This document shows, piece after piece, positions 1-62,218 of a DNA stretch of 64,000 nucleotides; position 1 is the first letter of the stretch, and each line of letters starts with the position of its first letter. The notes under the pieces are model-generated. The model saw nothing but the letters and a program-made list of their open reading frames with translations. It had not been told where the DNA came from and did no database searches. A program made the position numbers and the translations under genes. The stretch comes from Chloroflexota bacterium (GTDB lineage Bacteria; Chloroflexota; UBA11872; UBA12225; JAJDUF01): contig OZ250185.1 of NCBI GenBank assembly GCA_965238265.1, positions 1,949,255 through 2,013,254 of the forward strand, in the 5' to 3' direction.

Positions 1-14
1 TGCGCCGGCTGCCG

Positions 15-1850: not shown

Positions 1851-1987
1851 GCCCAGTCTTGAGGCCATATCATCAAGATTGCACAGACCTGTAACATCTC
1901 CGGCCCTCCCGGCCAAGTAGTTTTATAAGGCCAGGAGAAGTTGGCAGCCTCGGCTGCGAGGGCCTAGCCGGGTGACGGGAGAGGCGC

Positions 1988-2689
1988 GTGACGCGAGAGG
2001 TGGCGCACGGTGCGCCGGTGACTGTCTCGGAGACTGCCGATGACGACGCCAGAGCCGCACCACCTGTATCCAGCGGATCGTGCGGCTCTGGCGCGTCACC
2101 AGGTGCCGTCTTGGGCACCGCAATTGAGCGCGACTTTGTGAGTCTTCAGCGCGCGGTGGAGCTGCTCGTGTGGTGCTTCCTCGTGCGACAGGGTCGTCCG
2201 CTCAACCATGCGGCGCTCCGTACTACCGCGGAAGACGTACTCCAAGAGGCTATCGCCCGCGTCCTGAAGCGGTCGGCGGCGTATGATCCGCAGCGCTCGG
2301 CCCACGCCTGGGTGGTTGGGTTTGCCATCAAGGTGCTCCAGGAGCGGCGGCGGCGTGAGCTACGCGAGCAGCAGTATCTCGCTGCCGATACTGGCAGTGA
2401 TTCCCCGGGGGCAGAGCGTACTCCCGACGCACTGCTGGAGCGCGTCAGCGACCTGGCAACGACCGACCGGCAAGGGCTGCTGGAGCTGCTCGATCTCGTG
2501 AACGCTACCGACCGGCGAGTCCTCACGTTGCGGTTTGTGTATCGGCTGCGCGGGCTAGAGTTGGCACAGGCGTTGGGTATCTCTCACGGCGCCGCGCGCA
2601 CGCGGGTGAGCCGGGCGTTGAGCCACTTGGCCACTGCCTATCACCGGGCCGACCGGTTCGCTGGAGATGGCGCGGCAGAGGAGGGTTAG
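1988..2689 (+). CDS. RNA polymerase sigma-70 family (ECF) sigma factor
   Basis: A region-2-like segment (DVLQEAIARVLKRSAAYDPQRSAHAWVVGFAIKVL) and a region-4 helix-turn-helix (RRVLTLRFVYRLRGLELAQALGISHGAARTRVSRAL) are present. The gene has a GTG start. Confidence 0.8.
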   Translation: MTREVAHGAPVTVSETADDDARAAPPVSSGSCGSGASPGAVLGTAIERDFVSLQRAVELLVWCFLVRQGRPLNHAALRTTAEDVLQEAIARVLKRSAAYDPQRSAHAWVVGFAIKVLQERRRRELREQQYLAADTGSDSPGAERTPDALLERVSDLATTDRQGLLELLDLVNATDRRVLTLRFVYRLRGLELAQALGISHGAARTRVSRALSHLATAYHRADRFAGDGAAEEG

Positions 2690-2691
2690 CG

Positions 2692-3927
2692 ATGCCAGAT
2701 ACCAATGGCGTAGACCCTGAGCTACAGCGGGAGCTGGTGCTGTGCCGCTATGTGCAGGCATTTGACCATGGGGACTTGGCTGCCCTGGCCGCTGCCTTGG
2801 CGCAGGCGGCGGACGATCCGGAGCTTGACCGACAGATCATGGCGGTGAATACGGCCCTGCACAGCGAGGCGGGACTCCGGCCGTTGGCGGAGCCGGCGGC
2901 GTTCGCCGCCCGTCGTAGCCGTAATGGTGAGCTTGTTACCGAGACAGTTGGGGCCGCTGCTGCCGTCGGGCCGGACAGCCGCGCCCAACCGCGCTCGCTA
3001 AGGCCGGCGATCAATGGCCGGCAGAAAGGGGAAGAGCCGATGGAAGTTTCGAGACCGCGTTCCTGGCTGGCGTGGCTGGCCGGCCAGTGGCGCTGGCGGC
3101 TGACCGCTGCTGTAGCCGTCGTGGCGGTGCTCCTAGGGGGCGTGCTGGCGACACCGGCCGGTCGTGCGGTGGCGACGGAGCTGCTTGGGCAGTTCCGGGT
3201 GCAGAAGTTCGCGCTCATCACGGTCGCGCCGCAGGACCCGACGGCAAACTTTGCCAGCCTGGAGCAGCTTGGCACCTTACATGTGCCCGAACATATGCAG
3301 GAGGGGAATACGGAGGCAACCGGCGTTGCCGCAGCCGCGGAGCAAGTCGGCTTTACCGTCCGGCAGCCCGCACACCTCCCCTCCGGACTGTCGGCAGACC
3401 CGCAGGCCCACACGACGCTGGCCTCCACGGTGAGCTTCACCGTGGAGCGGGATAAGGCCCTGGCCTATCTGGCGGAGCAAGGTCACTCCGACATCGCCGT
3501 GCCGGAAGCGCTGGACGGCGCCACGATTCACCTGACCATATCGGCGGCCGTGCTGTTGGCCTACGGTGATGACGCTGGGCAGGTGTCTCTGGTTGTCGGC
3601 CAGTCGCCTAGCCCTACGGTGAGTGTGTCCGGCGGTGCGACGCTGGAGCAGTTCCGCTCGTTCCTGTTGAGCGTGCCGGGCCTCCCGGCCGATACGGTAG
3701 CCCAGCTGCGGGCCATTGACGACTGGACGCAGACGTTGCCGATCCCCGTACCGCAAGATGAGGCCGTCTCCCGGCACGTCACGGTTGCCGGTGCTCCTGG
3801 AGTGAGCGTGCAGGATGCCCAGACGCGACACGGGGTCATTCTGTGGCAGCGTGACGAGATGGTGTATGGAGTTGGCGGAAGCTACGGTGAGCAAGAGCTG
3901 CTGGCCGTCGCCGCCTCTCTACAGTAG
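2692..3927 (+). CDS. putative anti-sigma factor / single-pass membrane protein cotranscribed with the ECF sigma factor
   Basis: It starts 3 nt after the sigma factor's stop. There is a single TM helix (WRWRLTAAVAVVAVLLGGVLA) about 125 aa into the protein. The sigma / anti-sigma gene order is typical. Confidence 0.5.
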   Translation: MPDTNGVDPELQRELVLCRYVQAFDHGDLAALAAALAQAADDPELDRQIMAVNTALHSEAGLRPLAEPAAFAARRSRNGELVTETVGAAAAVGPDSRAQPRSLRPAINGRQKGEEPMEVSRPRSWLAWLAGQWRWRLTAAVAVVAVLLGGVLATPAGRAVATELLGQFRVQKFALITVAPQDPTANFASLEQLGTLHVPEHMQEGNTEATGVAAAAEQVGFTVRQPAHLPSGLSADPQAHTTLASTVSFTVERDKALAYLAEQGHSDIAVPEALDGATIHLTISAAVLLAYGDDAGQVSLVVGQSPSPTVSVSGGATLEQFRSFLLSVPGLPADTVAQLRAIDDWTQTLPIPVPQDEAVSRHVTVAGAPGVSVQDAQTRHGVILWQRDEMVYGVGGSYGEQELLAVAASLQ

Positions 3928-3932
3928 CGACC

Positions 3933-4988
3933 ATGGATTCACGTACCGATGGGCCGATGCCCGGCCAGGTCGGCACAGTCCCAAGTAGCGATGGTGGCGC
4001 CGACCTGGCTGGGCCAGCCGAGCGGTCGGGATGGGCCATCGAAACCGAGGGGCTGCGGAAGGTCTATGGCCGCTTCGTAGCCTTGGCAGACCTCACGCTC
4101 CGCGTCGCACCCGGTGAGGTCTTCGGCTTTCTCGGCCCGAACGGAGCCGGCAAGACGACGGCGCTCAAAATCCTGCTCGGCTTGGCCGCCGCGACGAGCG
4201 GTAGCGCGCGCGTCCTGGATCGTCCGGTTGGCGACCGGGCCGCGCGGCGGGACATCGGCTACCTACCGGAGCACTTCCGTTTTCCCGACTGGCTGACCGG
4301 CAGCGAATTCGTGGATGTCCATGGCCGCCTCGCCGGGCTGTCGCGCACCGAGCGCCGCGAACGGGTGCCCCAGGCGCTGGCCACCGTCGGGCTGACGGCG
4401 GCGGCCGGTAAGCAGCTCCGCACCTACTCGAAGGGGATGCAACAGCGCGTCGGGCTGGCGCAAGCCATTGTCCACCGGCCCACGCTGGTCTTCCTGGACG
4501 AGCCAACCTCTGCGCTCGACCCGATTGGCCGCCGCGATGTGCGTAATCTGATCAGCCGGCTCCGCGACGAGGGCGTGACGGTCTTCCTCAATTCGCATCT
4601 CTTGAGCGAGGTGGAGCTGGTGTGCGACCGCGTGGCCATCGTGAACCACGGTCGAGTGGTGCGTTCAGGGGCGTTGGCCGACTTGCTCGCCGGTGAGCAT
4701 GTGCTGCGGCTCACGGTAGACAGCGCTACCGCGGAGCTTGTGGCGGCCCTCCGCGCTTGGGGCGCCGTCGAGCGCCTGGACGAGCGGGTGACGACGCCGG
4801 AAGCGCCGGCCCGTCAGGAGCTACGGATCGTCACGTCGGGACCGGAAGTCGCCCCGGCGGTGGCCGCGGCGGTCGTCGAGCAGGGTCGTCAGCTATTCGC
4901 ATTGGTCCCCGAGCAGCACTCCCTGGAAGAGGTCTTTCTGAGTGCTCTTGGCGCCGAGGCAAGTGAAGGGGAAGACGCGACGCCATGA
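3933..4988 (+). CDS. ABC transporter ATP-binding protein
   Basis: Walker A (GPNGAGKTT), the ABC signature (YSKGMQQRVGLA) and Walker B (LVFLDEPTSALD) are all present. The stop overlaps the start of the next gene (ATGA). Confidence 0.9.
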   Translation: MDSRTDGPMPGQVGTVPSSDGGADLAGPAERSGWAIETEGLRKVYGRFVALADLTLRVAPGEVFGFLGPNGAGKTTALKILLGLAAATSGSARVLDRPVGDRAARRDIGYLPEHFRFPDWLTGSEFVDVHGRLAGLSRTERRERVPQALATVGLTAAAGKQLRTYSKGMQQRVGLAQAIVHRPTLVFLDEPTSALDPIGRRDVRNLISRLRDEGVTVFLNSHLLSEVELVCDRVAIVNHGRVVRSGALADLLAGEHVLRLTVDSATAELVAALRAWGAVERLDERVTTPEAPARQELRIVTSGPEVAPAVAAAVVEQGRQLFALVPEQHSLEEVFLSALGAEASEGEDATP

Positions 4989-5863
4989 GCCATCCCGTCG
5001 TCCTCGTCGCGGAGCTGACGGTCCGTGAAGCCGCTCGCCGGCGCATTTTCCTGGCCATCATCGTGCTCAGTCTGCTGTACGTGGCGCTCTTTGGCCTCGG
5101 GTTCGCCTTCTTGATTGAGGAGATCGAGCGGGAGGAGGCCGCCCGACCGGCCTCGGAAGCGGCACAGCAGGCCGTAGCGTTGGTGCCGCCGATCATGACG
5201 ACCCTGGGCATCTACGGTCTCAACCTCATGGCCGGTGGCGCCGCGCTGTTCTTGGGCGCCGGCACCCTCGCGGGCGAAGTGGCGTCTGGGCTAATGCAGG
5301 TGGTGGCTGCCCGGCCGTTGCGTCGCGGGGATATCGTGGTCGGCAAATGGCTAGGCTTGCTGGTCATTGCCACGCTCTACATGGCCGGAACGTTCGCGCT
5401 GCTGCTGCTCGTCGTGTGGGTACTGTCGGGCTACACGCCGCCGCTGCCGCTGCCGGCCATTGGACTGCTCCTGCTGGAGATGGCCTTGCTGCTGGCTATC
5501 GCGCTGCTGGGAAGTGCGCTCTTCTCCACGGTGACGAACGGCATCATCATCTTCATGCTGTACGGCGCGGCTTGGATCGGCGGGTTTATCGAGCAGATTG
5601 GCTCGCTGCTGCAGAGTGACGTCATGGTCAACCTGGGCATTGTCGTGAGCTTGCTGATGCCCAGCGACATCCTCTGGCGTGCGGCCTCGTTCTACTTGCA
5701 GCCGGCCCAGCTGCTCTTGCTGCAGAACGCGGCGGCGAGTGGTAGTGGCCTGCCGTTCGCCGCGAGTGCGCCCACTGCCCCGGCCATGCTGATCTGGGCC
5801 GGCCTGTACAGCGTAGCGGCGTTAGGCGGAGCTATCGCCGTCTTCAGCCACCGCGACCTGTAG
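4985..5863 (+). CDS. ABC-2 family transporter permease
   Basis: It is a polytopic membrane protein with six hydrophobic segments and is translationally coupled to the upstream ABC ATPase. Confidence 0.75.
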   Translation: MSHPVVLVAELTVREAARRRIFLAIIVLSLLYVALFGLGFAFLIEEIEREEAARPASEAAQQAVALVPPIMTTLGIYGLNLMAGGAALFLGAGTLAGEVASGLMQVVAARPLRRGDIVVGKWLGLLVIATLYMAGTFALLLLVVWVLSGYTPPLPLPAIGLLLLEMALLLAIALLGSALFSTVTNGIIIFMLYGAAWIGGFIEQIGSLLQSDVMVNLGIVVSLLMPSDILWRAASFYLQPAQLLLLQNAAASGSGLPFAASAPTAPAMLIWAGLYSVAALGGAIAVFSHRDL

Positions 5864-5883
5864 AGTAGCCAGGGGCCAGGACC

Positions 5884-5908
5884 GTCATTGCGGCGCAAGC
5901 CGCAATCC
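5884..5908. repeat. dRS3-like palindromic repeat (gtcattgcggcgcaagccgcaatcc), one member of a multi-copy family
   Basis: The inverted repeat tcattgcggc / gccgcaatcc was seen directly. Related copies occur at 11176, 17177, 30197, 40476, 40519, 59228 and 63821. Confidence 0.8.
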
Positions 5909-5985
5909 AGTACCGAGGGCCTGGACTGCGGCTGCTGCCGCAGTGACGAGACGGGAACCCTTTTACGCCATCACCCGGCGGGTCA

Positions 5986-6384
5986 TTAGCCGCAGTACCG
6001 GAACATGGAGAGCGGCCCATTCCTCGACGGATAGATGAGGGTTTCTTCTCTGGCACCTCCTCTTCCCAGGTCAAAGGAAAGGTCGGCGAGGCGAAGGTCG
6101 GAAAGGAATCCCCCCTCAATGTCGGTGATGCTCCCGCTCTCGATTCTTCGGGAAAGCTGGCGCGCCAGGTATTGCGCTAGGGAGGTATGTTGGCCTACAC
6201 CGAGACCACCTATTGGCCAGCCTTTGTCCCGCCGAATCTCTGGAGCGCGACGGTCAAATTCAATGGCCAATTGGTATGCCGTCAGGAAGGGGCGGCCGAG
6301 GTGGTGCCCGGGTGGGTTAGATTCGAGGCCTCCGAGAATCTCCCTGACGTGGTTTTCAACATGGTAGTCTTCCCAATCACTCAT
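5986..6384 (-). CDS. hypothetical protein in a lower-GC patch. It occupies the position downstream of prfA where prmC is often found.
   Basis: It is a 132-aa ORF with a TAA stop and a local GC content visibly lower than flanking DNA. No recognisable motifs were found. Confidence 0.45.
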   Translation of the reverse strand: MSDWEDYHVENHVREILGGLESNPPGHHLGRPFLTAYQLAIEFDRRAPEIRRDKGWPIGGLGVGQHTSLAQYLARQLSRRIESGSITDIEGGFLSDLRLADLSFDLGRGGAREETLIYPSRNGPLSMFRYCG

Positions 6385-6452
6385 TCCGTCCTCCAGTCAA
6401 CTGGCTGATGCGACTGTGGTGCAGGGCGGCAATCTCACGACGGGCCAAGGCG

Positions 6453-7538
6453 CTACCCGACGGCGGCGAGGCGCTCGGCTTGGTCCGCTTGAGCGAGCGC
6501 AGCGATGAGGTCATCGAGGGTGCCGTCGAGGATACTCGGCAGATTACTCGTCGTCAGGCGGACGCGGTGATCGGTCACGCGATCCTGAGGAAAGTTGTAG
6601 GTCCGGATCTTCTCGTTGCGGTCCCCGCTGCCGATCTGCGAGCGGCGGGCATCGCCGCGCGCCGCCGCCGCCTGGCGCCGCTGCTGATCGAGCAGGCGAG
6701 CACGCAATACGGCGAGCGCCTTCAGCCGGTTCTTCAGCTGCGAGCGCTCGTCTTGACAGGTCACTACCATGCTGGTGGGCCGATGGGTAATCCGTACCGC
6801 TGAATCGGTGGTATTCACGCTCTGACCGCCATGGCCTGACGAGCGGTACGTCTCGAAGATGAGGTCCTCGGGGTCAATCTGGACCTCCACCGCCTCCGCG
6901 ACCGGCAGCACGGCCACCGTGGTCGTGGATGTATGAATGCGCCCGCTGGCTTCCGTCGTCGGTACGCGCTGGACCCGATGCACACCGCTCTCATACTTGA
7001 GCTGGCTGTAGACACCGCGCCCATTCACTTGGAAGATGGCCTCTTTATGGCCACCGATCCCGGTTTCGTTGAGGTTCACAAGGTCAACCTTCCAGCGCCG
7101 GCGCTCGGCAAAGCGGACGTACATGCGGTAAAGCTCCGCTGCGAACAGCGCCGCCTCCTCGCCACCCGCACCGGCCCTGATCTCCACGATGACGGCCCGT
7201 TCGTCGTTAGGATCGGGGGGGAGCATGGCCAGCCGCAGGTCGTGGGTCACCTGCTCCACACGCTCCTCCAGCACCGCAATCTCGTCGCTTGCCAACTCAG
7301 ACAGCTCCGGGTCATCCGACTCGGCCAACACCGACCGTGCCCCCGCCAGCTCCTCATCGAGGCGACGCAGGTCACGGTATAGCGAGACGGTCTTCTCCAG
7401 ACGGCTCTGCTCTTGGCCGTATTCGCGCAGCAGCTTCGGGTTGGTGATGGTTTCGGGCGCAACAAGGAGGTCCCCAAGCTCTGCGTAGCGGGATTGTAGC
7501 TGGTCCAACTGATTAATCATGGCTACCGTTGGCGGCAT
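6453..7538 (-). CDS. prfA: peptide chain release factor 1
   Basis: The GGQ motif (SSGHGGQSVNTTDSAVRITHRPTS) is present, and the RF1-type tripeptide anticodon region (RVQRVPTTEASGRIHTS) identifies it as RF1 rather than RF2. Confidence 0.95.
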   Translation of the reverse strand: MPPTVAMINQLDQLQSRYAELGDLLVAPETITNPKLLREYGQEQSRLEKTVSLYRDLRRLDEELAGARSVLAESDDPELSELASDEIAVLEERVEQVTHDLRLAMLPPDPNDERAVIVEIRAGAGGEEAALFAAELYRMYVRFAERRRWKVDLVNLNETGIGGHKEAIFQVNGRGVYSQLKYESGVHRVQRVPTTEASGRIHTSTTTVAVLPVAEAVEVQIDPEDLIFETYRSSGHGGQSVNTTDSAVRITHRPTSMVVTCQDERSQLKNRLKALAVLRARLLDQQRRQAAAARGDARRSQIGSGDRNEKIRTYNFPQDRVTDHRVRLTTSNLPSILDGTLDDLIAALAQADQAERLAAVG

Positions 7539-7598
7539 GTGTACCTCGCTTAAGAAGTGAAGCCCCTGACCGGGAGTGCGTGCGTAAGGCTGGAGCTA

Positions 7599-8615
<1,017 letters not shown>

Positions 8616-8712
8616 CTGTGGCCGTCCTATGGCCGTTCTGTCTGCTGTGGCCGTCCTACCTACCCAAAGCGTACTCGCCGCCCGCGCCTCCTGGCGTACT
8701 ACTCACTACGTC

Positions 8713-8746
8713 AAAAGAAGGTAGAGCCGGATCAACCCTACCTTCT
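8713..8746 (-). terminator. rho-independent terminator-like hairpin following rpmE
   Basis: On the minus strand, a 9-bp stem (agaaggtag ... ctaccttct) is followed by a TTTTGACG stretch. Confidence 0.5.
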
Positions 8747-8767
8747 CCTATGGTGAACGTCGGTGTG

Positions 8768-9040
8768 CTAACCGGCGCTGGCGGTGGCCTCGTTTGCCTC
8801 GACCGCGGCTGTATCGTCGCCCGCGCCGGGCACCTCCGATGCCAAACCAAAGCGGCGATGAAAGCGCTCGACTTGACCGGCCGAATCGACGATGCGCTGC
8901 TGGCCCGTGAAGAAGGGGTGGCAAGTTGAGCACAGCTCCACCCTGATCTCCGGCCGTGTCGAGCCTGTCGTCCAAGTGTTGCCGCAGGAGCAAATGACCT
9001 TCGCGTCGTCATAGTAGCGCGGATGGATGTCCGATTTCAC
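8768..9040 (-). CDS. rpmE: 50S ribosomal protein L31, Zn-ribbon (C+) form
   Basis: The sequence VKSDIHPRYYDDAKVICSCGNTWTTGSTRPEIRVELCSTCHPFFTG carries a CxC...CxxC motif. Start was taken at the GTG (VKSDIHP); the track ORF extends further upstream, to 9085. Confidence 0.9.
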   Translation of the reverse strand: MKSDIHPRYYDDAKVICSCGNTWTTGSTRPEIRVELCSTCHPFFTGQQRIVDSAGQVERFHRRFGLASEVPGAGDDTAAVEANEATASAG

Positions 9041-9204
9041 GCTGATTACCTTTCGTCTGCGCCTCCCCGGCGATACTGTTGACACGCCAGGTATGGATTT
9101 ACCATGGTAAGTATATCACCGACCGACCGGCGCAAGCAGCCGTCAGCTATCAGCTTGCAACGGTGGCAGGAGCCACCCACGGGCTGACGGCTGATAGCTG
9201 ACGG

Positions 9205-9999
9205 CTACCGGGGCGGGGTGAGCCGGTGCAGGTCAACGACGAGCCGCTGTCCGAGACCGGCAAACGGCACGGACTGGACGGCATCGCTCCAACCGGCCTC
9301 ACGCAGCAGCGCCACGAAGAGGCCGCCGGCCTCGCGTCGTGGCTCGGCCAGCCAGAGCCATCCGCCCGGACCGAGCAGCCGGGGAACGAGCGCGGCGAGT
9401 GGTGCTACGTCGCGCTGCTCGTACAGCACGTCGGCCGCCAGGACCACGTCGTAGGGCGGCTCCAGCCACGCGCAGGGGTCGGGGCCACGCCAGCTGCCCA
9501 GCTTTGTGACGAGCGAGACGCCGGCCAGCGTCTGGACATTGTAGGCGGCGAACGCCAGGGCATCCGGCTCGCAATCCACGGCCAGCAGATCGGCGCCCGC
9601 GACGAGCGCCGCCGCGGCGGTCAGTCCCAGACCACAGCCCAGCTCCAGCACACGCTGCCCAGCGAGGGCATCGGCCGTCAGAACGGCCTCGGCGAGCACC
9701 TGCCCGGCGGGCCAGAGCTGCGCCCAATAGGGCAGCCGGTCGTCGTCGTTGGGCAGGATGGAGTCAATGAGCGAGTCGGGATCGGCTAGCCCCAGCACGG
9801 CCCACGAGCGACCGCCTACCTGCACCGGTGTTTGGCCCAGCCGGTAGCGCGCGGCGAGCCGGTCGCGCAGCGGAGCCGCACCGTATACTGCTGTCTCGGC
9901 TGAGGCCTCTGCGCGTCGCCCTGGAGCGGGAAGCGGCTCCGGCTTACCAGGGCGGCCCCACAGTCCGCGGCGGCGCCGTGCCGCCTGCCGGCTACGCAT
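9205..9999 (-). CDS. class I SAM-dependent methyltransferase (Methyltransf_16-like)
   Basis: Motif I (VLELGCGLGL), a post-I acidic residue (AVDCEPD) and the segment LEPPYDVVLAADVLYE are present. This is not the NPPY motif of HemK. Confidence 0.65.
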   Translation of the reverse strand: MRSRQAARRRRGLWGRPGKPEPLPAPGRRAEASAETAVYGAAPLRDRLAARYRLGQTPVQVGGRSWAVLGLADPDSLIDSILPNDDDRLPYWAQLWPAGQVLAEAVLTADALAGQRVLELGCGLGLTAAAALVAGADLLAVDCEPDALAFAAYNVQTLAGVSLVTKLGSWRGPDPCAWLEPPYDVVLAADVLYEQRDVAPLAALVPRLLGPGGWLWLAEPRREAGGLFVALLREAGWSDAVQSVPFAGLGQRLVVDLHRLTPPR

Positions 10000-10035
10000 T
10001 GCTCATCCTAGCCGGCCAGAGCTTCCTGTACCGAG

Positions 10036-11127
10036 GTGCTCGGAAGTAGCTCTGGCCCCGCTACCATGCTGTCTATGACCATCCAACCGCCACCATCCAT
10101 CAGCCTCGCGCCGTCGCGCCTCCGGCGTGTACACGCCGGCTTGCTGCGCTGGTATCAGGAGCAAGGCCGCCGCCTTCCCTGGCGGCAGACACGCGACCCC
10201 TATGCCATCCTAGTCGCCGAGATGATGCTCCAGCAAACGCAGGTGGACCGCGTGGTGCCCAAATACGCGGCGTTTCTGGCTACGTTTCCCACGATTGCTG
10301 CGCTGGCCGCGGCTTCGCGCGGCGAGGTGATCCGCCACTGGGCCGGGCTGGGTTACAACCGGCGAGCTGTGCATCTGCACCGGATTGCCCAGCAGGTGGT
10401 AGCGAACCATGACGGTAAGCTCCCGACCGACCCGGCCACCCTCCGGACCTTGCCGGGCATCGGCCGCTACACGGCCGCGGCCGTCGCCTGCTTCGCAGCG
10501 GAAGCGCCGGTGCCGGTGTTGGACACCAACGTCCGCCGCGTGCTGGGACGGGTCTTTCTGGATACCTGGCTCGATGACGACGGCCGGACGGAGCCGCCCC
10601 CTGAGCACACCGGTTGGCTTCTGGCCGAGGCCGCGTTGCCGCCTCAGACTGCCTACGCCTGGAACCAAGCGCTCATGGACCTCGGTGCGACCGTCTGTAC
10701 CGCCGCGCGTCCGGCGTGTCGCGTGTGCCCCCTCGCTCCGGTATGCGCCTATCGCCAACGGCTATTGGCAACCACCGAGCTAGGCCCGCTGTTCGGTGGT
10801 GCGGGCGCCGAAACGCCGGCGCGCCAGGCAGCAGAGGAATCCGGGTCATACCGAGCCGGCGCGTCAAAGGCCGAGCCGTTCGAGGGCAGTCGCCGCTGGT
10901 ACCGCGGGCGCATCCTGGCCAGCCTACGCACGCTGCCGCGCGGGGAGACGGTCGCTCTGGCCCGGCTCGGTCCGCAGCTCCGGGCGGACTTTGCGCGCGA
11001 CCACATAGGATGGCTCGCCGACCTCCTCCTAGCCCTGGCCGATGATGGGCTAGTGGAGTGCCGCGGGGGCCTGCGCGGCGCCGACACCGACGCGCTAGGG
11101 GACGTTGAGGTTGCGCTACCGGCCTAG
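10036..11127 (+). CDS. mutY: A/G-specific adenine DNA glycosylase
   Basis: The HhH-GPD domain (LPGIGRYTAAAVACFA ... VLDTNVRRVLGRVF), a 4Fe-4S cysteine cluster (CTAARPACRVCPLAPVCAY) and a C-terminal NUDIX-like domain are all present. Confidence 0.9.
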   Translation: MLGSSSGPATMLSMTIQPPPSISLAPSRLRRVHAGLLRWYQEQGRRLPWRQTRDPYAILVAEMMLQQTQVDRVVPKYAAFLATFPTIAALAAASRGEVIRHWAGLGYNRRAVHLHRIAQQVVANHDGKLPTDPATLRTLPGIGRYTAAAVACFAAEAPVPVLDTNVRRVLGRVFLDTWLDDDGRTEPPPEHTGWLLAEAALPPQTAYAWNQALMDLGATVCTAARPACRVCPLAPVCAYRQRLLATTELGPLFGGAGAETPARQAAEESGSYRAGASKAEPFEGSRRWYRGRILASLRTLPRGETVALARLGPQLRADFARDHIGWLADLLLALADDGLVECRGGLRGADTDALGDVEVALPA

Positions 11128-11175
11128 GAGTGGCCAGTGGTCATTGGCACCACGCCATGAAAATAACCGCTATCC

Positions 11176-11199
11176 GTCATTCCCGCGTGCGCGGGAATC
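11176..11199. repeat. dRS3-like palindromic repeat (gtcattcccgcgtgcgcgggaatc)
   Basis: The inverted repeat tcattcccgcg / cgcgggaat was seen directly. Confidence 0.8.
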
Positions 11200-11292
11200 T
11201 AGGGCGGGGTACCGGCGCCGGAAATGGGCCTGTGATATAGTCCTATACTCACTATGCTCTGGTGACCCGGCGGCGCAGAGTGCGGGCGCTAG

Positions 11293-11368
11293 GCCGAGAT
11301 AGCTCAGTTGGTAGAGCACGTGACTGAAAATCACGGTGTCGGCAGTTCGATTCTGCCTCTCGGCACCA
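11293..11368 (+). tRNA. tRNA-Phe (anticodon GAA)
   Basis: The cloverleaf was read by hand: acceptor stem GCCGAGA / TCTCGGC, D-arm GCTCAGTTGGTAGAGC, anticodon loop CTGAAAA, T-arm GGCAGTTCGATTCTGCC, discriminator A and a genomically encoded CCA. It closely resembles E. coli tRNA-Phe. Confidence 0.92.
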
Positions 11369-11386
11369 TTTCCCCAAGTAAGCGCT

Positions 11387-11420
11387 GGCCTCTGCGATAG
11401 ATAGCAGAGGCCGTTTGATT
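11387..11420 (+). terminator. rho-independent terminator-like hairpin after tRNA-Phe
   Basis: A 9-bp stem (ggcctctgc ... gcagaggcc) with loop gatagata is followed by gtttgatt. Confidence 0.6.
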
Positions 11421-11652
11421 CTCGTTGACGGTCGCGTACATACCCTCCTCACTGCGGTGCAGTGTGTCTGGAGGTGAGCTTATGCCGCAGCCGCAGTCAA
11501 TGCCCCTCTTCCACGCGCAGGCATCGCCGTCCAGCCTTCGCGATGGTATGTGTCGGGTTGATGTCGGTCTCCGTTGTTCCGATCAACACGAGACTTCAAC
11601 TTGCCTGACTATCCGGAATCGCAGTTGAGAGCTAAGGAGCACATAGAAAATC

Positions 11653-14600
11653 ATGAACCGCAGCGGGCAGAACATTGTTGTCGGGGCTCTCGTCCAATGG
11701 ACAGGCGCGAAAACATACGGGGTAGTCACCAACATTGATGACGGGGTAATCCATGTCCGATGGGATGAAGCAGGTCTCCCACCCCAATTTGCGGTCAGGA
11801 ACGCCCCGCTACTGCGGATTGAAGTGGGAGGTGAAGTTGTCCAACGGAGATCGACCGGGGAGATTGCAGCTGTCCAAGGCCCGGTGGACGTGGAGCCACC
11901 AACCTGGCAGTGCGTCATCACCGGTTCTGGTAGTCCAGTTAGAGCCAACGTGCCGGAGGCAGACCTGCGCCCCATACCTATCACCGATCCCGTTGACTGA
12001 TTCGAGGCGAGCCACATTGGCTCACTCCGGCAGTATCGTCTCCAGGAGGTCACACGGTGGTACCGGGCGCTGCATCTTCACAACGATCTCGTGTCCCTCG
12101 GAAATGCTCGGGTGGATATTAAGCCCCATCAAGTGGGGGTTGTGCATAGAGTAGTAACCAACTACCCTCACCGCTTCCTGTTATGCGATGAGGTTGGTTT
12201 GGGAAAGACGATTGAAGCAGGGATGGCACTTAAGGAACTCCGGACCAAAGGCGGTGCCCAGCGGGTTCTAGTCATTGTTCCGCCTAACCTGGTTCGTCAG
12301 TGGCAGTTCGAGATGAAGACGAAGTTCAATGAGATTTTCTCAGTGCTGGACACCAACACTGTCCAGTTTTTGAGGAATCAAGGCCAGGTGGGTAATCCCT
12401 TCACCTACTCGGACAGTGTTCTATGTTCCGCAGCATGGGTTGCCCATCCGAAATGGGCGAAGTTGTGCGCCGAGGTGGACTGGGACCTCGTCATCGTAGA
12501 TGAGGCCCACCACGCCCGGAGCCGTCGTTCCGGAAACCGGGTCCAGACAACGCGCCTCTACCGGTTGGTCAGAGATCTGACGACACCGGAGCATATCACC
12601 CGAAGGGGAATGCTCTTCCTTACCGCAACGCCAATGCAGCTTGATACCCATGAACTCTATTCCCTGGTAGAGCTCCTTGACCCCGCACTCTTCCCTTCAG
12701 AGAAACACTTCGAACAGCACCTTCAAGCGGTGCCCGGCCTTTCTCAACTTGTCGAGCGCCTCCACATGCACGGATTCCCGTTCCCGGAAGAGGATCCTGA
12801 CGAAACGGTCGAGCAGGTTTCCGAGTGGCTTGGTTTGGGTGTGGATATAGCGCGCCAGCGGCTCTCTGCCGGAGAAGAGGCGCGGGAGGCACTTGCCAAC
12901 GAGTTGGCCGATCATCACCTCCTCAGTGAAGTGTTGATTCGGAACCGCAAGGCTGTGGTGGGCGGATTCATGCCTCGTGTAGCCCATCGTTGGGAGGTTG
13001 ACTTAACACCCGAAGAACGCGCGGCGTTGCGAGCCGTAGAGGATTACGTCCAGTATGGATTTCAACTTGCCGAGGGTGCCAACAACAGCGCTGTGGGATT
13101 CGTTATGGTCATTTTTCAGAAGTTGATGGCATCCAGCATTGCTGCCATCAGGGAGTCGTTAGGCAGGCGCAGGCAGAAAATCCGAACTGCCCTCGCAAGC
13201 CCGCAGTCGTCTGCGGGTGCTACTCAACTAGAGGAGAGACTGGATGATGACGACAATGCGGGTGATGTCGTCGAGATCCCCGGCGTCGCGGCTGACATGG
13301 TGAACGAGGAGCTATTCCTGCTAGACCGAGCCATCAACACCCTTGACCTAGTGAACCGCGACTCCAAATCTTGCGTACTTGTCGAGCGGCTAGCCGAGTT
13401 GTTCGATGAGCACCCTGACGAGAAGGTGCTCGTATTCACTCAGTTCCGCGAGACCCAGAGACATTTGGGAGAACTGCTCACTGCCAGAGGTTGGGGTGTT
13501 AACGTCTTTCATGGTCAAATGAAGCCTGGAGACAAGGACGACGCAGTGGAAGGTTTTAGGAACGGTGTGGGGCCCCAAGTGCTCATAAGCACCGAGGCTG
13601 GTGGTGAGGGTCGGAACTTCCAATTCTGCCACCTGCTCGTCAACTACGATCTGCCGTGGAATCCTATGCGAGTCGAACAGCGTATCGGTCGAGTGGATCG
13701 TATCGGCCAGGACCATACGGTCAGTATCTTCAACCTCTGGGTCAAAGACACCATAGAGGAGCGCGTTCTCGACGTGCTGGAGAATCGAATTAGAGTGTTC
13801 GAGGAAACCGTAGGGGGTCTTGATCCTATCCTCGGCGAGGCCGAGAACGACATACGGAAAATCATGCGTATTGCTGATGAAGAACGGGAAAAGCCCTTGA
13901 GGAGTTTGGCAAGCAGTTGGAAGGGCAGGTCCGCCGCGCCCGGGATGCAGAGGGGAAACTTGGCGACTTCATCATGGACACGAAGTCTTACCGGCGACAA
14001 CTCGCCGAGCGCATCGCCGGGCAGCCTTCACCGATCAACAATGATGATCTTGATAGGTTTATAAGAGAGCTTCTCGCCAGTGTACGCACCTACATCAAGC
14101 GAAATGGTGATTTTTATGAGCTGACCTTCCATGGCGAAATTCTTGACACCTTAAGGACACATTTCGCCGGCGGACCCAAGCGAAAGGCGGTGTTCCGACC
14201 TGACCGCCGTCCCGACTCGGATGATGTCGAGTTTGCGGCATTCGGCCATCCGATCGTGGACGCAATAGTTACACAAGTACTTGATGAGGGCTACGAGGGA
14301 GTGACAGGCACCCGCCGCATTCCTGCTGGCGACGATCTCGCCCCCCAGTCTGGATGGCTCTTCACCTACCAGTTCACTATCCCTGGTCCGCAGTCCACCG
14401 AACGTCTCGTGCCGGTCTTCATGCACGACAATGGTGAAGTGGATGTGGAGACAGGACACCACATCGTGCAACGTGCCTATCGGTTTGACAGGAATGAGCA
14501 GGAGATGCACCCTTCCGAGATTCCCGACAACCTCCGCGAGATTGAGCCACAGGCGAATCGGTTTGCCAATGCCGAGAGGGAAGCGGCCCAGCAGCAGGCT

Positions 14601-14915
14601 GAGACTCAGGCCGCCGAGCGTTTCAACCGGGAAATCGCTCGTCTTGAGGCATGGTTCGACTATCGGGAACGCGCCGCCAGTGACCGTGTGGAGGCTACCA
14701 GCGCTACCCTGAATCGACTCCGCGAGAGCGATGACGAGTCGCAGCGCCAAATTTTGCCCGTCTGGGAGGCTAATCTCCGACGGGACAAGGAACTGCTCGG
14801 TAATCTCACCGAAGAGCGTCGCCGCCGGATTGATGAAGCTGAGAGATATCGTCACCCTCAAGTCGATTGGGTGCTGAAGTCGCTGGGCCGCATTGAGGTG
14901 GTGGCTCCCAACTAA
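11653..14915 (+). pseudogene. rapA: RapA/HepA-like SNF2-family ATPase (RNA-polymerase-associated protein homologue). It is disrupted by an in-frame TGA at 11998-12000 and by a frameshift near 13886-13893. It lies in a lower-GC islet directly 3' of tRNA-Phe.
   Basis: ORF 11653..12000 has a tandem Tudor/KOW-like N-terminal domain (VGALVQWTGAKTYGVVTNIDDGVIHVRWDE) comparable to the E. coli RapA N-terminal domain. After the TGA the same frame continues into the ATPase core: [37 protein letters not shown] (compare E. coli RapA [37 protein letters not shown]), a DEAH box (LVIVDEAHHARS) and helicase-C motifs (QRIGRVDRIGQ). The C-terminal 330 aa continue in a different frame (ORF 13917..14915) after the homopolymeric run gggaaaag. 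Confidence 0.8.
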
Positions 14916-14999
14916 CGGGACTCGGCGGCCTGACGCTTTCACTACCCGACCCGGCGGATAGCTTCCCATCCTCTGCTGCGGCGAGTTGGCCGCGCTTGC

Positions 15000-15668
15000 T
15001 CATTCTGCCGCCATGGTCGGTGCCGACCGTGCCCACCGGATGGCAGCGGCGATAAAGAACAGGCCCATGGCCACGAGAAACGCGCCAGCGAGACCGACAA
15101 CGAACCGGTAGACCTCAGCGTCGAAGAGCTGCTGTCCGGCGATGAGGAGCAATGCGATCAGCACGTACCAACCGAAGTCGGCCGCGATATGGCCAATATA
15201 AAAGGCGCCCAGTGCCAGGTTCCCGCCGCGGTGGAGCGCCAAGGCCGTGTAGCTGGCGCCGACCGTTGCCCACCAGAGCACCCAATAGGGATTACTCACG
15301 CTCACGACGATGCCCGTGAGAATAGGCAGGGCCGCAGCCGGGGCGGCTTGCGCCTCGCCAAGGTGAACGGCGCCAGTCCAGGCGGCCCGCGCAAGATCGG
15401 CTCCCAACACGATCAGGGCGATGCCACCGAGCGCCGCAATCGTCCGCAGGACCGTAGGGTGTCGGATCGCCCGTGCCAGCCCCCGGGCCAGGGCCAGCAC
15501 CACGAGCAGTTCGAGCAAGGCGTGTCCGAGCACGAGCAGCGGCGCCGCCCAGAATCCGGTGCGGGCGACATCGCCGATCACCGCTGTGAGTAGGGGTCCC
15601 GGTGCGACGGCGCCGGACAAGCCTACGAGCAGTGAGGTGGCGAAAAGGCCCCAGGTAGCTCTCATCAT
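15000..15668 (-). CDS. LysE/RhtB-family amino-acid exporter
   Basis: It is about 220 aa with six TM segments and an N-terminus typical of LysE-type translocators. Confidence 0.65.
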   Translation of the reverse strand: MMRATWGLFATSLLVGLSGAVAPGPLLTAVIGDVARTGFWAAPLLVLGHALLELLVVLALARGLARAIRHPTVLRTIAALGGIALIVLGADLARAAWTGAVHLGEAQAAPAAALPILTGIVVSVSNPYWVLWWATVGASYTALALHRGGNLALGAFYIGHIAADFGWYVLIALLLIAGQQLFDAEVYRFVVGLAGAFLVAMGLFFIAAAIRWARSAPTMAAE

Positions 15669-15943: not shown

Positions 15944-17131
15944 TTGACGAGCAATGATCCGCTGCGTATCGCCGTAGTCGGCTGTGGGGGGATGGCTGGC
16001 TCCCATCTTCGCGCGTACCGCGAGCTGGCGCAGAAAGCGCCGGGCCTCATCACGGTGAGCGCGACGTGCGACGTGGACGAGGCCCGCGCTCGCCGCGCCG
16101 CTGCCGAGGTTGCCGAGTTCCAGGCGCAGGCGCCGCGTGTCTATACCGACTACCGGCAGCTCCTCGACGAGCACCGACCACCAGCGGTTGACCTGATCGT
16201 GCCGCATAATGTCCACCACACCCTCGTAGTCGAGGCCTTCGACGCTGGCGCCCACGTGCTGCTGGAAAAGCCGCTCGCCGTCAGTATTGCCGCCGGCCGG
16301 CGGCTCTTGGCGGCGCACGAACGGGCGTGTGAGCGGTCGCCCCTCGTCCTGGCAGTGGCCGAACAGTACCGGCGCACACCGGAGGCCCGGGTGACTTGCT
16401 GGGCAATCCGGGATGCGGGCCTCATCGGTGAGCCGCGGATGATCTTCTCACAACGAGTAAATCTCAGCATAGGCCTGATCGTCGGGACTGCCTGGCGCCA
16501 CGACCGCCTCCTATCCGGCGGTGGTTGGGTGCTCGACGGCGAGGTACATACGTTCGACCTCTTTCACAATATGTTCGGTCGTATTGCCGAGGTCTATGCC
16601 GCGGTACGGACCTTCGAGCCGACCCGCTACGCAGACCCGCAGACACTCAGCGGCCCCACGCCCTCCGACGTTGAGGACGCCGCGATGGCCGTGTTGACCT
16701 TCGAGAGCGGGCTGTTGGCCAACTTCACCTGGACCCAGGCTGCCCCGGGAAAGGCGTTCCAGCGGCGCCGCTACTATGGCAGCGACGGCTCACTGGACCA
16801 GGATGGCTTGCACCGGCGCGATGGCACTACCTTGGGCATTGCCGAGGTGCAAGAGCAGTTCCTAGAGTTGCTCACCCCGGAGCAGAAGGAGACATTATTT
16901 CCCTACGACACCCGAGACCCGGTCCTAGTAGAAATCGTGGATTTCGTCCGCGCCGTGCGTGATGGCACCGTGCCGGAGGTAGACGGCCACGAGGCGTTAG
17001 CGGCGATGGCAGTGAGCGAGGCTCTGTACGAGTCGGCCCATGCGGGTACGCCGGTCAAGGTAGCCGATGTCCAAGCCGGCCGCGTCCGGGCAGCGCAGCG
17101 TGACATTGACGCGCACTGGGGCTTGCTGTAG
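15944..17131 (+). CDS. Gfo/Idh/MocA-family NAD(P)-dependent oxidoreductase
   Basis: An N-terminal Rossmann fold (LRIAVVGCGGMAGSHLRAY) is present, and the length and C-terminal domain are typical of the family. Confidence 0.8.
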   Translation: MTSNDPLRIAVVGCGGMAGSHLRAYRELAQKAPGLITVSATCDVDEARARRAAAEVAEFQAQAPRVYTDYRQLLDEHRPPAVDLIVPHNVHHTLVVEAFDAGAHVLLEKPLAVSIAAGRRLLAAHERACERSPLVLAVAEQYRRTPEARVTCWAIRDAGLIGEPRMIFSQRVNLSIGLIVGTAWRHDRLLSGGGWVLDGEVHTFDLFHNMFGRIAEVYAAVRTFEPTRYADPQTLSGPTPSDVEDAAMAVLTFESGLLANFTWTQAAPGKAFQRRRYYGSDGSLDQDGLHRRDGTTLGIAEVQEQFLELLTPEQKETLFPYDTRDPVLVEIVDFVRAVRDGTVPEVDGHEALAAMAVSEALYESAHAGTPVKVADVQAGRVRAAQRDIDAHWGLL

Positions 17132-17176
17132 CCCAGCATGGTAGTACCACTGATCTAGGCTCTGTTGACATTCCTC

Positions 17177-17261
17177 GGTCATTCCCGCTTGCGCGGGAAT
17201 CCAGGGCGGGCGCGATGGCTACGGCCCCAGGTGCCTGGATTCCGGCCTCCGCCGGAATGAC
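17177..17261. repeat. composite repeat made of two dRS3-like hairpins in opposite orientation (ggtcattcccgcttgcgcgggaatcc ... ggattccggcctccgccggaatgac)
   Basis: Seen directly. The architecture resembles the elements at 59228-59302 and 40476-40582. Confidence 0.8.
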
Positions 17262-17305
17262 GGGAGGGGACACCATGAATGACACTCCTACCTGGTGGTC
17301 AGGTG

Positions 17306-18463
17306 CTAACTACCCCCGGCCTCGTGGAGGAGCCGGTGGAGCTTGGCAGCGCTGCGCTCCCATGTGAACCGCGCTGCTTGTGCCGTCCCGCGCTCGATAA
17401 GCGTGGCGCGTAGCTCCGAGTCGCCGAGACAGCGAGACAGTGCATCGGCTAAGGCTGCTATGTCGGTTGGCTCCACCAACAGCCCGGCGTCGCCGACCAC
17501 TTCCGGTAGAGACGACACCCCCGAGGCCACGACGGGACAACGACAGGCCATCGCTTCGACACAGGGCAGGCCAAAGCCTTCATAGAGCGAGGGGTAGGCC
17601 AGCGCGACCGCTCCGGCGTACAGCAGACGCAGCTCGCTGTCGTCAGCGTCCTCGATCAGCCGGAACGAGTCGGTCATCTCGTGGTCTTGCACCGCCCGCT
17701 GCACCTCGGCATAGAGCCAGCCACGGCGACCGGCATGGACGAGCAAGACGTCTTCGCCGGTCTGCTCGCGTAGCAGGCGCACGGCCGCGATCAGTCGGGG
17801 CAGGTTCTTGCGCGGCTGTACCGTGCCTACCGAGAGGACGTAGGGACGGTCGAGTCTGCGCCGGCGGCGCATCGCTCCCAGAGCGGCAGGGTCGTCCACC
17901 GGCCCGAAGATCGGATCGGCGGCCGAGAGGAGGACGGCAGTCTTTTCCGCCGGTACTCCCAGGAGTGCCATGGTGTCTTGGCGCGTGTGCTCCGAGTCGG
18001 TGAGTACCAACGCGGCGGCCCGCACGGCCCGTGGCACCGCCGCTGTGAGGAAGGCGACCAAGCCGGGATCGTGCGTCTCCGGATAGTGCAGGAATGAGAG
18101 GTCGTGGATCGTGACAACCCCCCGCGCGCGTAGCAGCGGCGGGAGCACGAAGTTCGGCGAGTAAAACACCGCGCTGCCGGGGGCGCAGAGGTCAGCCCAG
18201 AGGGGTACTCGCCAGCGATGCCACAAGACGTTCAGCAGGCGCTCCGGGACGGGCAAGCGCCGCAGGGCTACCGTGCCCTCCGTCCCCGGCTCTACGTGTG
18301 GCGTCAAGGAGTCTCGCAGTGACGGGGGGACGGCCCCCGCATACAGCAAGGTGTAACTGTCGCCCGCTGCGGTGTGAATGAGCGCCTGGACCAGGGATCG
18401 GGTGTAGCGACCGACCCCGGCAGCCTGCCGCACGGCTGGGGTGTAGTCAATAGCGATCTTCAC
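17306..18463 (-). CDS. glycosyltransferase family 4 (GT-B fold, group 1)
   Basis: C-terminal GT4 motifs are present (LYAGAVALAYPSLYEGFGLPCVEAMACRCPVVAS). Start was taken at the GTG of VKIAIDYT; the track ORF extends 70 codons further into a repeat region. Confidence 0.8.
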   Translation of the reverse strand: MKIAIDYTPAVRQAAGVGRYTRSLVQALIHTAAGDSYTLLYAGAVPPSLRDSLTPHVEPGTEGTVALRRLPVPERLLNVLWHRWRVPLWADLCAPGSAVFYSPNFVLPPLLRARGVVTIHDLSFLHYPETHDPGLVAFLTAAVPRAVRAAALVLTDSEHTRQDTMALLGVPAEKTAVLLSAADPIFGPVDDPAALGAMRRRRRLDRPYVLSVGTVQPRKNLPRLIAAVRLLREQTGEDVLLVHAGRRGWLYAEVQRAVQDHEMTDSFRLIEDADDSELRLLYAGAVALAYPSLYEGFGLPCVEAMACRCPVVASGVSSLPEVVGDAGLLVEPTDIAALADALSRCLGDSELRATLIERGTAQAARFTWERSAAKLHRLLHEAGGS

Positions 18464-61165: not shown

Positions 61166-62218
61166 ATGGGAGAGAAGAACGAGACGGTGAAGGTGACCAA
61201 GAGACGGGTAGCGATGGGTGTAGTGGCGCTAGTGGCGCTGCTAGTAGTGGGGTGTGAGTCGGAGGGGACCGCGCCGGCTGCGAAGCCGGGCGGTGAGGTG
61301 GCGCCGGTGGCGCCGACGGCTGTGCCTCCGAAAGCTACGGCGACGATGGACACGGCACTGTCAGTGGTGAAGTATGTGTCTTGGTGTAGCTCGCTCACTA
61401 GCTCGCTCACACGGGACGAGAATAGCGAACAAGCGACGGTTACTTACGGGGAGATTAGGGGAATCTTCGCTAGTGCGTTGAAGGAGTATCAGAACGTCGT
61501 CCCGCCAGATGACCTGCGATCATACCACGCGGGTATGCAGTCTACGTTGCAGCTTGCGCTTGGCTCGATCAAGGACTTCCCAGACAGTCAACAAGTCGGG
61601 TTCGAGGCGCTAGGATGGGCACTGTTGGTTGAGGCGGCACAAGAAGCTGCTGTGGAGACTATACCCGCAGCGCTTCGAGGCAGGCTTGAAGATGCTGGAT
61701 GTATGCATTTAGTTTCTAGCGAGGGGGATGGTGAAGAGTTTACGACGGCGGCTTCTACCTCAGAGCCGACGCCAACCCCTGTTCCTGTGGGTGTGTCTGC
61801 GAGTGCGCCCGACGGATGGAAAATCCGCGTGAACGGTACTCTGTGAGGAGACCAGGCGCAACTCACGTTGGTTGCTTACAAGCGGCAGAAAAACCACAAC
61901 TATCGAGTGCCTACGCCCGAAGCTGGAAGGCAGTTCGTACTTGTGCATGTCACCATGCAACGAGATGGTGCCAGCCCTGATCGTCCGAATACCGGAGAGT
62001 TCGGGATTTTCGGCGATGAGAAGGTGATCTACAACACCGAGTTCCATGGGGATGAAGTAGTACCAGAAAGTCTGATATCTGCAAACAGGGTGCTACAAGG
62101 AGGCTCGGTGAGTGGCAATCTGCTTTTTTCCATCCCCCTATCCGAGAAGGGACAGCTAACTTTGCTGTACGGTGACAGTGAGTATCTCTTCGCTTTCGAG
62201 ACACCTAAAGAACAGTAG
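61166..62218 (+). pseudogene. lipoprotein with a DUF4352-like domain, interrupted by an in-frame TGA (61844-61846); lower-GC DNA
   Basis: A lipobox (LLVVGC) is present. ORFs 61166..61846 and 61868..62218 are in the same frame, and the peptide reads continuously across the stop (GWKIRVNGTL*GDQAQLTLVAYK). Confidence 0.6.

Follow-up and report, generated by a model that had tools for sequence, protein, structure and literature searches.

A horizontally acquired islet beside tRNA-Phe in a Chloroflexota bacterium carries a solitary DrmD-like SNF2 gene that appears to have been inactivated very recently

The subject of this analysis is a 64,000-nucleotide stretch of DNA (the window) from a Chloroflexota bacterium (GenBank assembly GCA_965238265.1, contig OZ250185.1, positions 1,949,255 to 2,013,254 of the forward strand), in which a segment of low guanine-plus-cytosine (GC) content lies between a tRNA-Phe gene and a gene for a LysE-family exporter and carries, as its sole cargo, one gene of the SNF2 ATPase family. 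Comparison with related genomes establishes that window positions 11458-14981 are a horizontally acquired 3.5-kb islet between tRNA-Phe and lysE. The reading that we consider probable for the whole is that of a horizontally gained, solitary SNF2 islet of the type of DrmD, a subunit of DISARM systems, which is accessory to its host and has been freshly inactivated in this strain. The single islet gene would then be a recently dead accessory gene and not a broken core rapA. The finding for this window is in itself one of ordinary accessory-gene flux, and the clade of solitary DrmD-like proteins to which the gene belongs (hereafter the solo clade) is the part worth follow-up.

The SNF2 gene occupies 11653-14915 and comprises 1087 codons when its three open reading frame (ORF) pieces are joined. 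The sequence-only reading of this DNA had taken the three pieces to be one degraded SNF2 gene of about that length, and both a TGA codon and a frameshift are confirmed between them. The parts of the gene are as follows.

11653-11997, + strand: pseudogene piece 1, the tandem Tudor-like N-terminal domain, residues 1-115 (ORF; AlphaFold, AF2, model; NCBIfam RapA profile from residue 23).
11998-12000, + strand: lesion 1, an in-frame TGA in place of CGA (Arg116) (sequence; contig L001 has C where the window has T at 11998).
12001-13888, + strand: pseudogene piece 2, the linker and SNF2 ATPase lobes 1 and 2 with an intervening helical insert (Pfam; alignment to E. coli RapA).
13886-13892, + strand: lesion 2, a GGGAAAA tract that is 1 nt short and gives a -1 frameshift (alignment with L001).
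13890-14915, + strand: pseudogene piece 3, the C-terminal domain (residues 747-1087) and the stop codon (translation; tblastn 99% over residues 746-1087, frame 3).

Pieces 1 and 2 share one frame, with the single TGA between them, and piece 3 lies in the -1 frame. Piece 2 holds the motifs GLGKT (residues 182-186), DEAH (283-286) and QRIGRVDRIGQ (676-686), and the ATPase motif residues are invariant across 50 homologues. The TGA leaves a 115-residue N-terminal fragment, and the two lesions cut the ATPase core of the window copy off from the domains on either side; a product of re-initiated translation would have neither the N-terminal domain nor, owing to the frameshift, the C-terminal one. Judged from these changes, the gene in this strain is a fresh pseudogene that presumably does nothing now. 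The third ORF piece as called (13917-14912) is residue for residue the protein P0251 of NCBI and ENA, and the gene was fragmented by gene callers there too.

Several lines of comparison indicate that both lesions are derived and very recent. The gene is intact in contig L001 (ENA ERZ25766727), which is colinear with window 1653-24915 and 99.936% identical to it (14 substitutions and one indel in 23,264 bp), and the L001 protein, P0001, is an uninterrupted 1087-residue match to the joined translation; intact genes are also found in P0241, L006 and L089. Among 50 homologues at least 90% keep the Arg116 that is lost to the TGA, and the residue is Arg in P0001, P0241, L088 and L089. At the second lesion L001 has the intact tract GGGGAAAA where the window has GGGAAAA, and the tract of P0241, inferred from its protein, is the 8-nt GGGAAAAA, which leaves the 7-nt version of the window as the odd one out; the tract encodes EEREKALEE in P0241 and EERGKALEE in P0001. 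Since a strain that is 99.94% identical has the gene intact, the decay is recent. A ratio of nonsynonymous to synonymous divergence (dN/dS) of 0.15 between this lineage and the 93%-identical L006 orthologue further indicates that purifying selection acted on the gene up to a very recent time. The earlier suggestion of a possibly old, decayed island does not survive these results. The 897-residue protein P0250 was considered as a truncated allele and rejected, the translation at L089 being intact with a later start called; P0245 is similar and was likewise not counted.

The differences between L001 and the window are unevenly placed. The SNF2 gene, with 14% of the aligned length, holds 7 of the 15 (binomial p ~0.002, calculated by hand), comprising two synonymous changes, three amino-acid changes, the CGA-to-TGA change and the 1-nt loss. 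On a wider scale 11 of the 15 cluster within 4.2 kb (10564-14719) and only four fall in the remaining 19 kb; the clustered differences outside the SNF2 gene are at 10564, 10686 and 11069 in a neighboring MutY-like gene and at intergenic position 11149.

Errors of sequencing or assembly would offer an alternative explanation for the TGA and the 1-nt deletion, with the gene intact in the organism. This account, which we regard as unlikely, draws on the location of the frameshift in the GGGAAAA homopolymer tract, on the long-read-style contig names borne by related records, and on the very existence of a 99.94%-identical contig with the gene whole. However, no indel other than the frameshift occurs across the 23,264 bases aligned, a single gene contains both of the disabling changes, the nonsense change is a C-to-T substitution and not a homopolymer error, the 14 substitutions resemble normal strain variation, and structurally unambiguous insertion sequence (IS) disruptions of the gene in L088 and L047 show that real loss occurs. 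Programmed recoding, in which read-through of the TGA and a -1 ribosomal frameshift would together give the full-length protein, is scarcely credible. An in-frame stop and a slippery-looking G/A run are what it would require, but it was rejected since all close alleles are uninterrupted, with CGA and the 8-nt tract; no RNA element was detected (an Rfam scan for non-coding RNA in the leader and insert gave the tRNA alone), and two different recoding events in one gene of one strain are implausible.

The IS disruptions are part of a broader pattern, seen in L088 and in more distant genomes (a one-genome-per-species scan gave 583 relatives, of which the best 80 were analysed). In L088, which is 99.8% identical to the window, a 1.9-kb IS1595-family element (L088 12365-14308; DDE_Tnp_IS1595 and Zn_ribbon_IS1595) sits in the SNF2 gene and replaces 227 bp equivalent to window 12427-12653; by its structure this is evidently an independent inactivation that cannot be an artefact. 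In L047 the homologue is split by an IS5-like element (7117-8074, ~960 bp) that is bounded by terminal inverted repeats, GAGCCTATCCTAA, and has duplicated its target, CTTAG; the halves of another lie ~12 kb apart in L073/L074 (OZ220464.1), and the homologue is in several pieces, as assembled, in L030, L071, L078 and L081. Loss of the gene thus appears to be both recent and recurrent, and the three near-identical strains, one intact, one point-mutated and one IS-disrupted, provide a snapshot of accessory-gene loss in an uncultured lineage. On OZ220464.1, Vsr-like and C5-methyltransferase-like proteins are encoded just downstream of the N-terminal half.

The boundaries and origin of the islet were defined against the corresponding loci of host relatives (L085-L088), for which the MutY-like left-flank gene served as query. 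The features of the insertion site are as follows.

10036-11127, + strand: MutY-like adenine glycosylase (HhH-GPD), conserved left flank (ORF; Pfam HhH-GPD/HHH on the identical L001 gene).
11293-11368, + strand: tRNA-Phe (GAA) (ARAGORN; Rfam tRNA, 73 bits).
11386-11413, + strand: terminator-like hairpin and T-tract 3' of the tRNA (terminator scan; conserved in empty-site genomes).
11442-11457, + strand: direct repeat, left copy, imperfect, ACCCTCCTCACTGCGG (junction alignment; single copy in empty sites).
11458-14981, + strand: inserted islet, 3,524 bp, GC 56.7%, in which the SNF2 pseudogene is preceded by 195 nt of leader and followed by 66 nt of tail (comparison with empty sites; GC).
14965-14981, + strand: direct repeat, right copy, imperfect, CCCATCCTCTGCTGCGG (junction alignment).
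15000-15668, - strand: LysE-family exporter, conserved right flank (ORF; Pfam LysE on orthologues in L001 and L085-L089).

In two sister species the MutY-tRNA-Phe-LysE site is empty, with no SNF2 gene and a MutY-to-LysE distance of 415-640 bp (L085, MutY 86% identical; L086, 84%). Window homology to these empty sites ends at 11460 and restarts at 14964-14969 by BLAST, the left- and right-flank high-scoring segment pairs share 14-20 nt of empty-site sequence (L085 9455-9474), and the repeat ACCCTCCTCACTGCGG/CCCATCCTCTGCTGCGG is present in one copy in the empty sites and in two in the window. A match of this quality to the left junction is shared by just 0.17% of the 20-mers in the window. The same junction is occupied by the SNF2 gene in L006 and L089 (93% protein identity), and tRNA-Phe is found at the equivalent position in L001, L006, L085, L086 and L087. 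The islet starts ~90 nt 3' of the tRNA, past the hairpin at 11386-11413, which belongs to the host backbone and lies outside the insert.

Base composition agrees with these boundaries. Taken in 400-nt segments, GC is 53-59% over ~11200-14800 versus 65-73% on both sides, and the lowest-GC 3.26-kb segment of the whole 64 kb starts at 11301 (0.561, compared with a mean of 0.655 and standard deviation of 0.024). The insert itself has a GC of 0.567 versus 0.678 in the left flank and 0.664 in the right, and GC at third codon positions is 0.62 in the SNF2 gene versus 0.77-0.83 in six neighboring genes. Given the empty sites of L085 and L086 and a GC in the insert below that of its flanks, the islet is horizontally acquired. 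The proposal of a foreign islet beside tRNA-Phe that is absent from related genomes and compositionally distinct from its surroundings is therefore borne out, and the absence of an integrase and of a tRNA 3'-end repeat, remarked on in that proposal, holds as well; the low-GC region had been placed directly from the tRNA 3' end to about 14950, and here the drop in GC is real while the true edges are 11458 and 14981. One other 1-kb bin of the window falls below 60% GC (0.589), and it contains a 226-codon ORF without a Pfam match (61166-61846).

The spacer between tRNA-Phe and LysE is an insertion hotspot that varies among close relatives. In L087 (MutY 80% identical) it holds a different 2-kb cargo (L087 9599-11214) that encodes a 256-residue protein without a family match and a DUF2513 protein, with junctions equivalent to window 11375 and 15000 that differ from those of the SNF2 insert. 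This variability, together with the foreign composition of the DNA, its position adjoining a tRNA gene and the imperfect direct repeat at its junctions, recalls tRNA-associated islands, and the insert might be what is left of a classical integrase-mediated island that once used tRNA-Phe as its target, the integrase and all other cargo having been lost. Such an origin is improbable. No integrase gene, fragment or domain was found among the window ORFs or in the Pfam scan, no tRNA 3'-end repeat was found, and insertion occurred ~90 nt beyond the tRNA and its terminator at an imperfect repeat that is not tRNA-derived. Apart from short untranslated ends the insert consists of little but one gene, and the distinct junctions of the L087 cargo are also unfavorable. 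Furthermore, 59 other homologue loci are free of tRNA genes to a distance of ~1.2 kb (L015 comes closest) and only the same-locus L006 shares tRNA-Phe, so the proximity to tRNA-Phe is specific to this lineage and does not reflect a family-wide link. No terminal inverted repeats were found at the ends of the insert, and a promoter scan gave a single weak site (11625-11654) that is not above chance.

The kind of SNF2 protein that the islet encoded is indicated by sequence profiles and by a predicted structure. Pfam identifies SNF2-rel_dom (79 bits) and Helicase_C (86 bits) in the joined, intact protein, and an AF2 model built with 50 homologues (predicted local distance difference test score, pLDDT, 73) predicts the RapA fold along the whole length, with a tandem Tudor-like N-terminus, an SNF2 motor and a long helical and beta C-terminal domain. 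In the model two five-stranded beta-barrels occupy residues 13-107 (pLDDT 81-89) and are followed by the two-lobed motor and a C-terminal domain of mixed pLDDT that ends in a long coiled-coil and a beta-strand. RapA is the top Foldseek match, over ~1140 aligned columns that include the N- and C-terminal domains (E 1e-41 to 1e-31); an N-terminally truncated RapA aligns over ~115 fewer columns, and other SNF2 structures align over the ~580-column core alone (E ~1e-20). A sequence search of the PDB also places E. coli RapA at the top (211 bits, with eukaryotic SNF2 proteins at ~90 bits), so that no solved structure matches better than RapA (HepA; PDB 6BOG, 4S20, 8T0L) in sequence or in fold. The two proteins share the tandem barrel N-terminus and a nearly identical motif I region; they differ in that structure-based identity is ~22%, the window protein is ~120 residues longer, and the window gene has an accessory, horizontally mobile and patchy distribution and not that of a stable core gene.

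Family membership, as distinct from fold, is another matter. The joined protein scores 371 bits against the NCBIfam RapA profile (NF003426; alignment from residue 23, profile position 20), below the curated equivalog cut-off of 576 bits, and membership of the RapA orthologue family is rejected on that ground. The Pfam RapA_C match (PF12137) is also sub-threshold, at 15.1 bits versus a cut-off of 26.8, and spans 334 of 360 profile positions; the Pfam Tudor_RapA models give no match on the joined protein. The NCBIfam profile for DISARM DrmD (NF038317) gives 339 bits, below its curated cut-off of 610, and PADLOC models give 363 bits (BrxHI/BrxHII) and 278 bits (DrmD), with the HmaA model matching the ATPase core at 241 bits. 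Piece 3 aligns with the C-terminal regions of the BrxHI and DrmD profiles. The protein is thus not a RapA orthologue, and 'orphan DrmD-like SNF2' is the better label. The sequence-only reading had called the gene RapA-type: the architecture stands, including alignment of the N- and C-terminal domains to RapA, but identity as rapA does not, and the nearest informative contexts are those of DISARM. No second SNF2 gene is present within the 64-kb window; the sequence-only reading had taken the gene for a second rapA copy, on the premise that rapA is normally a single core gene. Many proteins of the solo clade (P0009, P0016 and others; 1127-1132 residues) continue for ~40 residues past the ...RIEVV end, a C-terminal extension that is missing from the window protein and from P0003, and P0004 and P0018 have a weak HTH_3 match.

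The DISARM connection comes from gene neighborhoods. At 19 of 83 related loci, with SNF2 proteins 42-58% identical to the window protein, PADLOC identifies DrmA (949 bits), DrmB (270 bits) and DrmC (163 bits) directly downstream of the SNF2 gene, and a C5 methyltransferase and a Vsr endonuclease are often encoded upstream. These 19 loci are DISARM systems in which the SNF2 gene occupies the position of DrmD. The SNF2 proteins that they encode are sub-threshold in the same way as that of the window (337-339 bits for RapA, 302-359 bits for DrmD), and with this shared score pattern the curated thresholds cannot separate the window protein from its DISARM-linked kin. A neighbor-joining tree built from 71 sequences puts the solo clade inside a grade of DISARM-linked sequences, which form the deeper branches; the DISARM-linked L028 (58% identity) stands at the base of the solo clade, and all relatives of at least 59% identity form, with the window protein, one derived clade. 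The clade of the window gene appears on this evidence to branch from within the SNF2 subunits of DISARM operons. No Drm genes were found within 6 kb of any relative of at least 59% identity, and tblastn with DrmA, DrmB, DrmC, DrmMII and Vsr gave no match in the window.

The comparison with DISARM DrmD is thus one of likeness in the protein and difference in the setting. The window protein shares the SNF2-rel_dom and Helicase_C core, its C-terminal region can be aligned with most of both the DrmD and the BrxHI profile, and its clade nests among relatives that are encoded directly upstream of DrmA, DrmB and DrmC; in contrast, the window lacks DrmA, DrmB, DrmC and a methyltransferase, and its copy is inactivated. 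Class 1 DISARM is composed of drmD, drmMI and drmABC (bioRxiv 10.1101/2021.12.28.474362), and the linked relatives differ from this arrangement in pairing with a C5 methyltransferase and Vsr and not with the class 1 N6-adenine DrmMI. DrmD and the related ArmA have been termed RapA-like Swi2/Snf2 proteins (PMC13463889). No experimentally assigned role for DrmD was found in the cited literature, a review table giving its tested function as N/A (PMC11232893). Eight of the loci (L033, L050, L052, L053, L060, L062, L068 and L077, ~1-15200 in each) contain operons with a DrmD-type SNF2 gene, DrmABC, a C5 methyltransferase and Vsr, and in them a component of textbook class 1 (DrmD) is combined with one of class 2 (DrmMII).

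The solo clade makes up ~45 of the loci fetched, and many further metagenomic proteins 59-93% identical occur among the best 120 protein matches. It spans Chloroflexota, Latescibacterota and Spirochaetota, and relatives 62-66% identical in metagenome-assembled genomes (MAGs) of Latescibacterota and Spirochaetia are nested among Chloroflexota sequences, an identity across phyla that is too high for vertical descent. Each genome surrounds its solo gene with a different set of unrelated housekeeping genes, and clustering of 3,156 ORFs from 82 loci revealed no conserved partner genes beyond the local synteny of related genomes. The GC of the SNF2 gene is below that of its flanks in 65 of 70 loci (by a mean of 5.7 points and by up to 16), so that the low-GC islet is a trait of the whole family. 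Between the window lineage and L006 (gene at L006 6001-9282) the SNF2 genes have ~92% nucleotide identity and a synonymous divergence (dS) of 0.24, compared with 0.39-0.61 for six flanking genes including prfA/RF1, which suggests that the islet allele was exchanged after the hosts had diverged. Matches on plasmids are haloarchaeal and at best ~30% identical, there are no phage matches, and relatives in IMG/VR are at most ~39% identical and mostly cover the ATPase core alone. Many members of the solo clade come from MAGs whose names (Poriferisodalis and Spongiisociaceae among them) suggest that the hosts may be sponge symbionts.

These distributions bear on the proposition that the gene is simply the lineage's own housekeeping RapA orthologue with an atypical composition, neither foreign nor related to defence. 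A full-length RapA-like fold that includes the Tudor-like domain contacting RNA polymerase in E. coli RapA would fit such a gene, as would its invariably solitary position among housekeeping neighbors and the purifying selection on it. We nevertheless judge the proposition quite unlikely: the score of 371 bits falls short of the 576-bit RapA equivalog cut-off, sister species lack the gene at the corresponding locus, and, as indirect evidence, no homologue is assignable to the sister chromosomes among the best 120 protein matches or the best 80 of the 583 loci. Its location varies by genome with a GC below that of the host in 65 of the 70 loci, its distribution crosses phyla, it nests among DISARM subunits in the tree, and it has been lost repeatedly in near-identical strains.

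Returning to a horizontally gained, DrmD-type accessory gene, we propose that the intact protein would be a DNA-dependent ATPase of the RapA/DrmD type that uses ATP to translocate along, or to remodel, double-stranded DNA, acting either alone or with partners encoded elsewhere. Descent from DISARM subunits, mobility and frequent loss make an accessory, conflict-related role the most probable one, and this would most likely be defence against mobile DNA rather than housekeeping recycling of RNA polymerase. The gene may have spread by horizontal transfer and by homologous recombination through conserved flanks, and its repeated loss may indicate that it is dispensable or costly. A precedent for a stand-alone SNF2-family gene is HmaA, a single-gene Snf2 anti-phage protein that needs its NOV_C nuclease domain (PMC11232893). 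The PADLOC HmaA model matches the ATPase core of the window protein, but the C-terminal nuclease domain on which HmaA relies has no counterpart, no nuclease or other effector domain being recognized in the window protein by Pfam or in the AF2 model.

A more speculative and rather doubtful extension is that the solo clade constitutes an autonomous one-gene system descended from the DrmD of DISARM that does without DrmABC, methylase and nuclease. The RapA-like motor could then act on invading or transcribing DNA by way of its Tudor-like docking domain of the RNA polymerase type, and a cost to the host would explain the repeated inactivation by point mutations and IS elements, which is seen even between strains whose identity exceeds 99.8%. 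The wider question is what links RapA, a transcription protein, to DrmD, a component of phage defence. By retaining a RapA-like architecture without DISARM partners the solo clade presents a test case for whether the motor is useful alone and whether it works via RNA polymerase.

Several observations weigh against a DrmD-type defence gene that was gained horizontally and has just been lost. The frameshift sits in a homopolymer tract, and for that lesion alone an assembly error is possible. The direct repeat at the junctions is imperfect, with 13 of 17 positions matching (16-17 nt). The tree is a quick neighbor-joining tree without support values, and the lower dS of the SNF2 gene could in part reflect its base composition. 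With respect to function, the protein contains no nuclease or effector domain that would explain autonomous defence, the RapA-like N-terminal domain predicted by the model would be equally compatible with a role linked to RNA polymerase, a defence role for the solo clade is argued from context, and DrmABC may be encoded elsewhere in the genome.

A second variable spot of defence type is located ~2 kb from the islet, between the genes for GFO_IDH_MocA and a GT4 glycosyltransferase (window 17131-17306). The window and L001 have nothing between these two genes. A type II methyltransferase is encoded at this spot in L085 (12368-13591) and L086 (12540-13763), and in L087 the spot (13500-15530) encodes a type II restriction enzyme (PADLOC REase_II, 250 bits) beside a type II methyltransferase.

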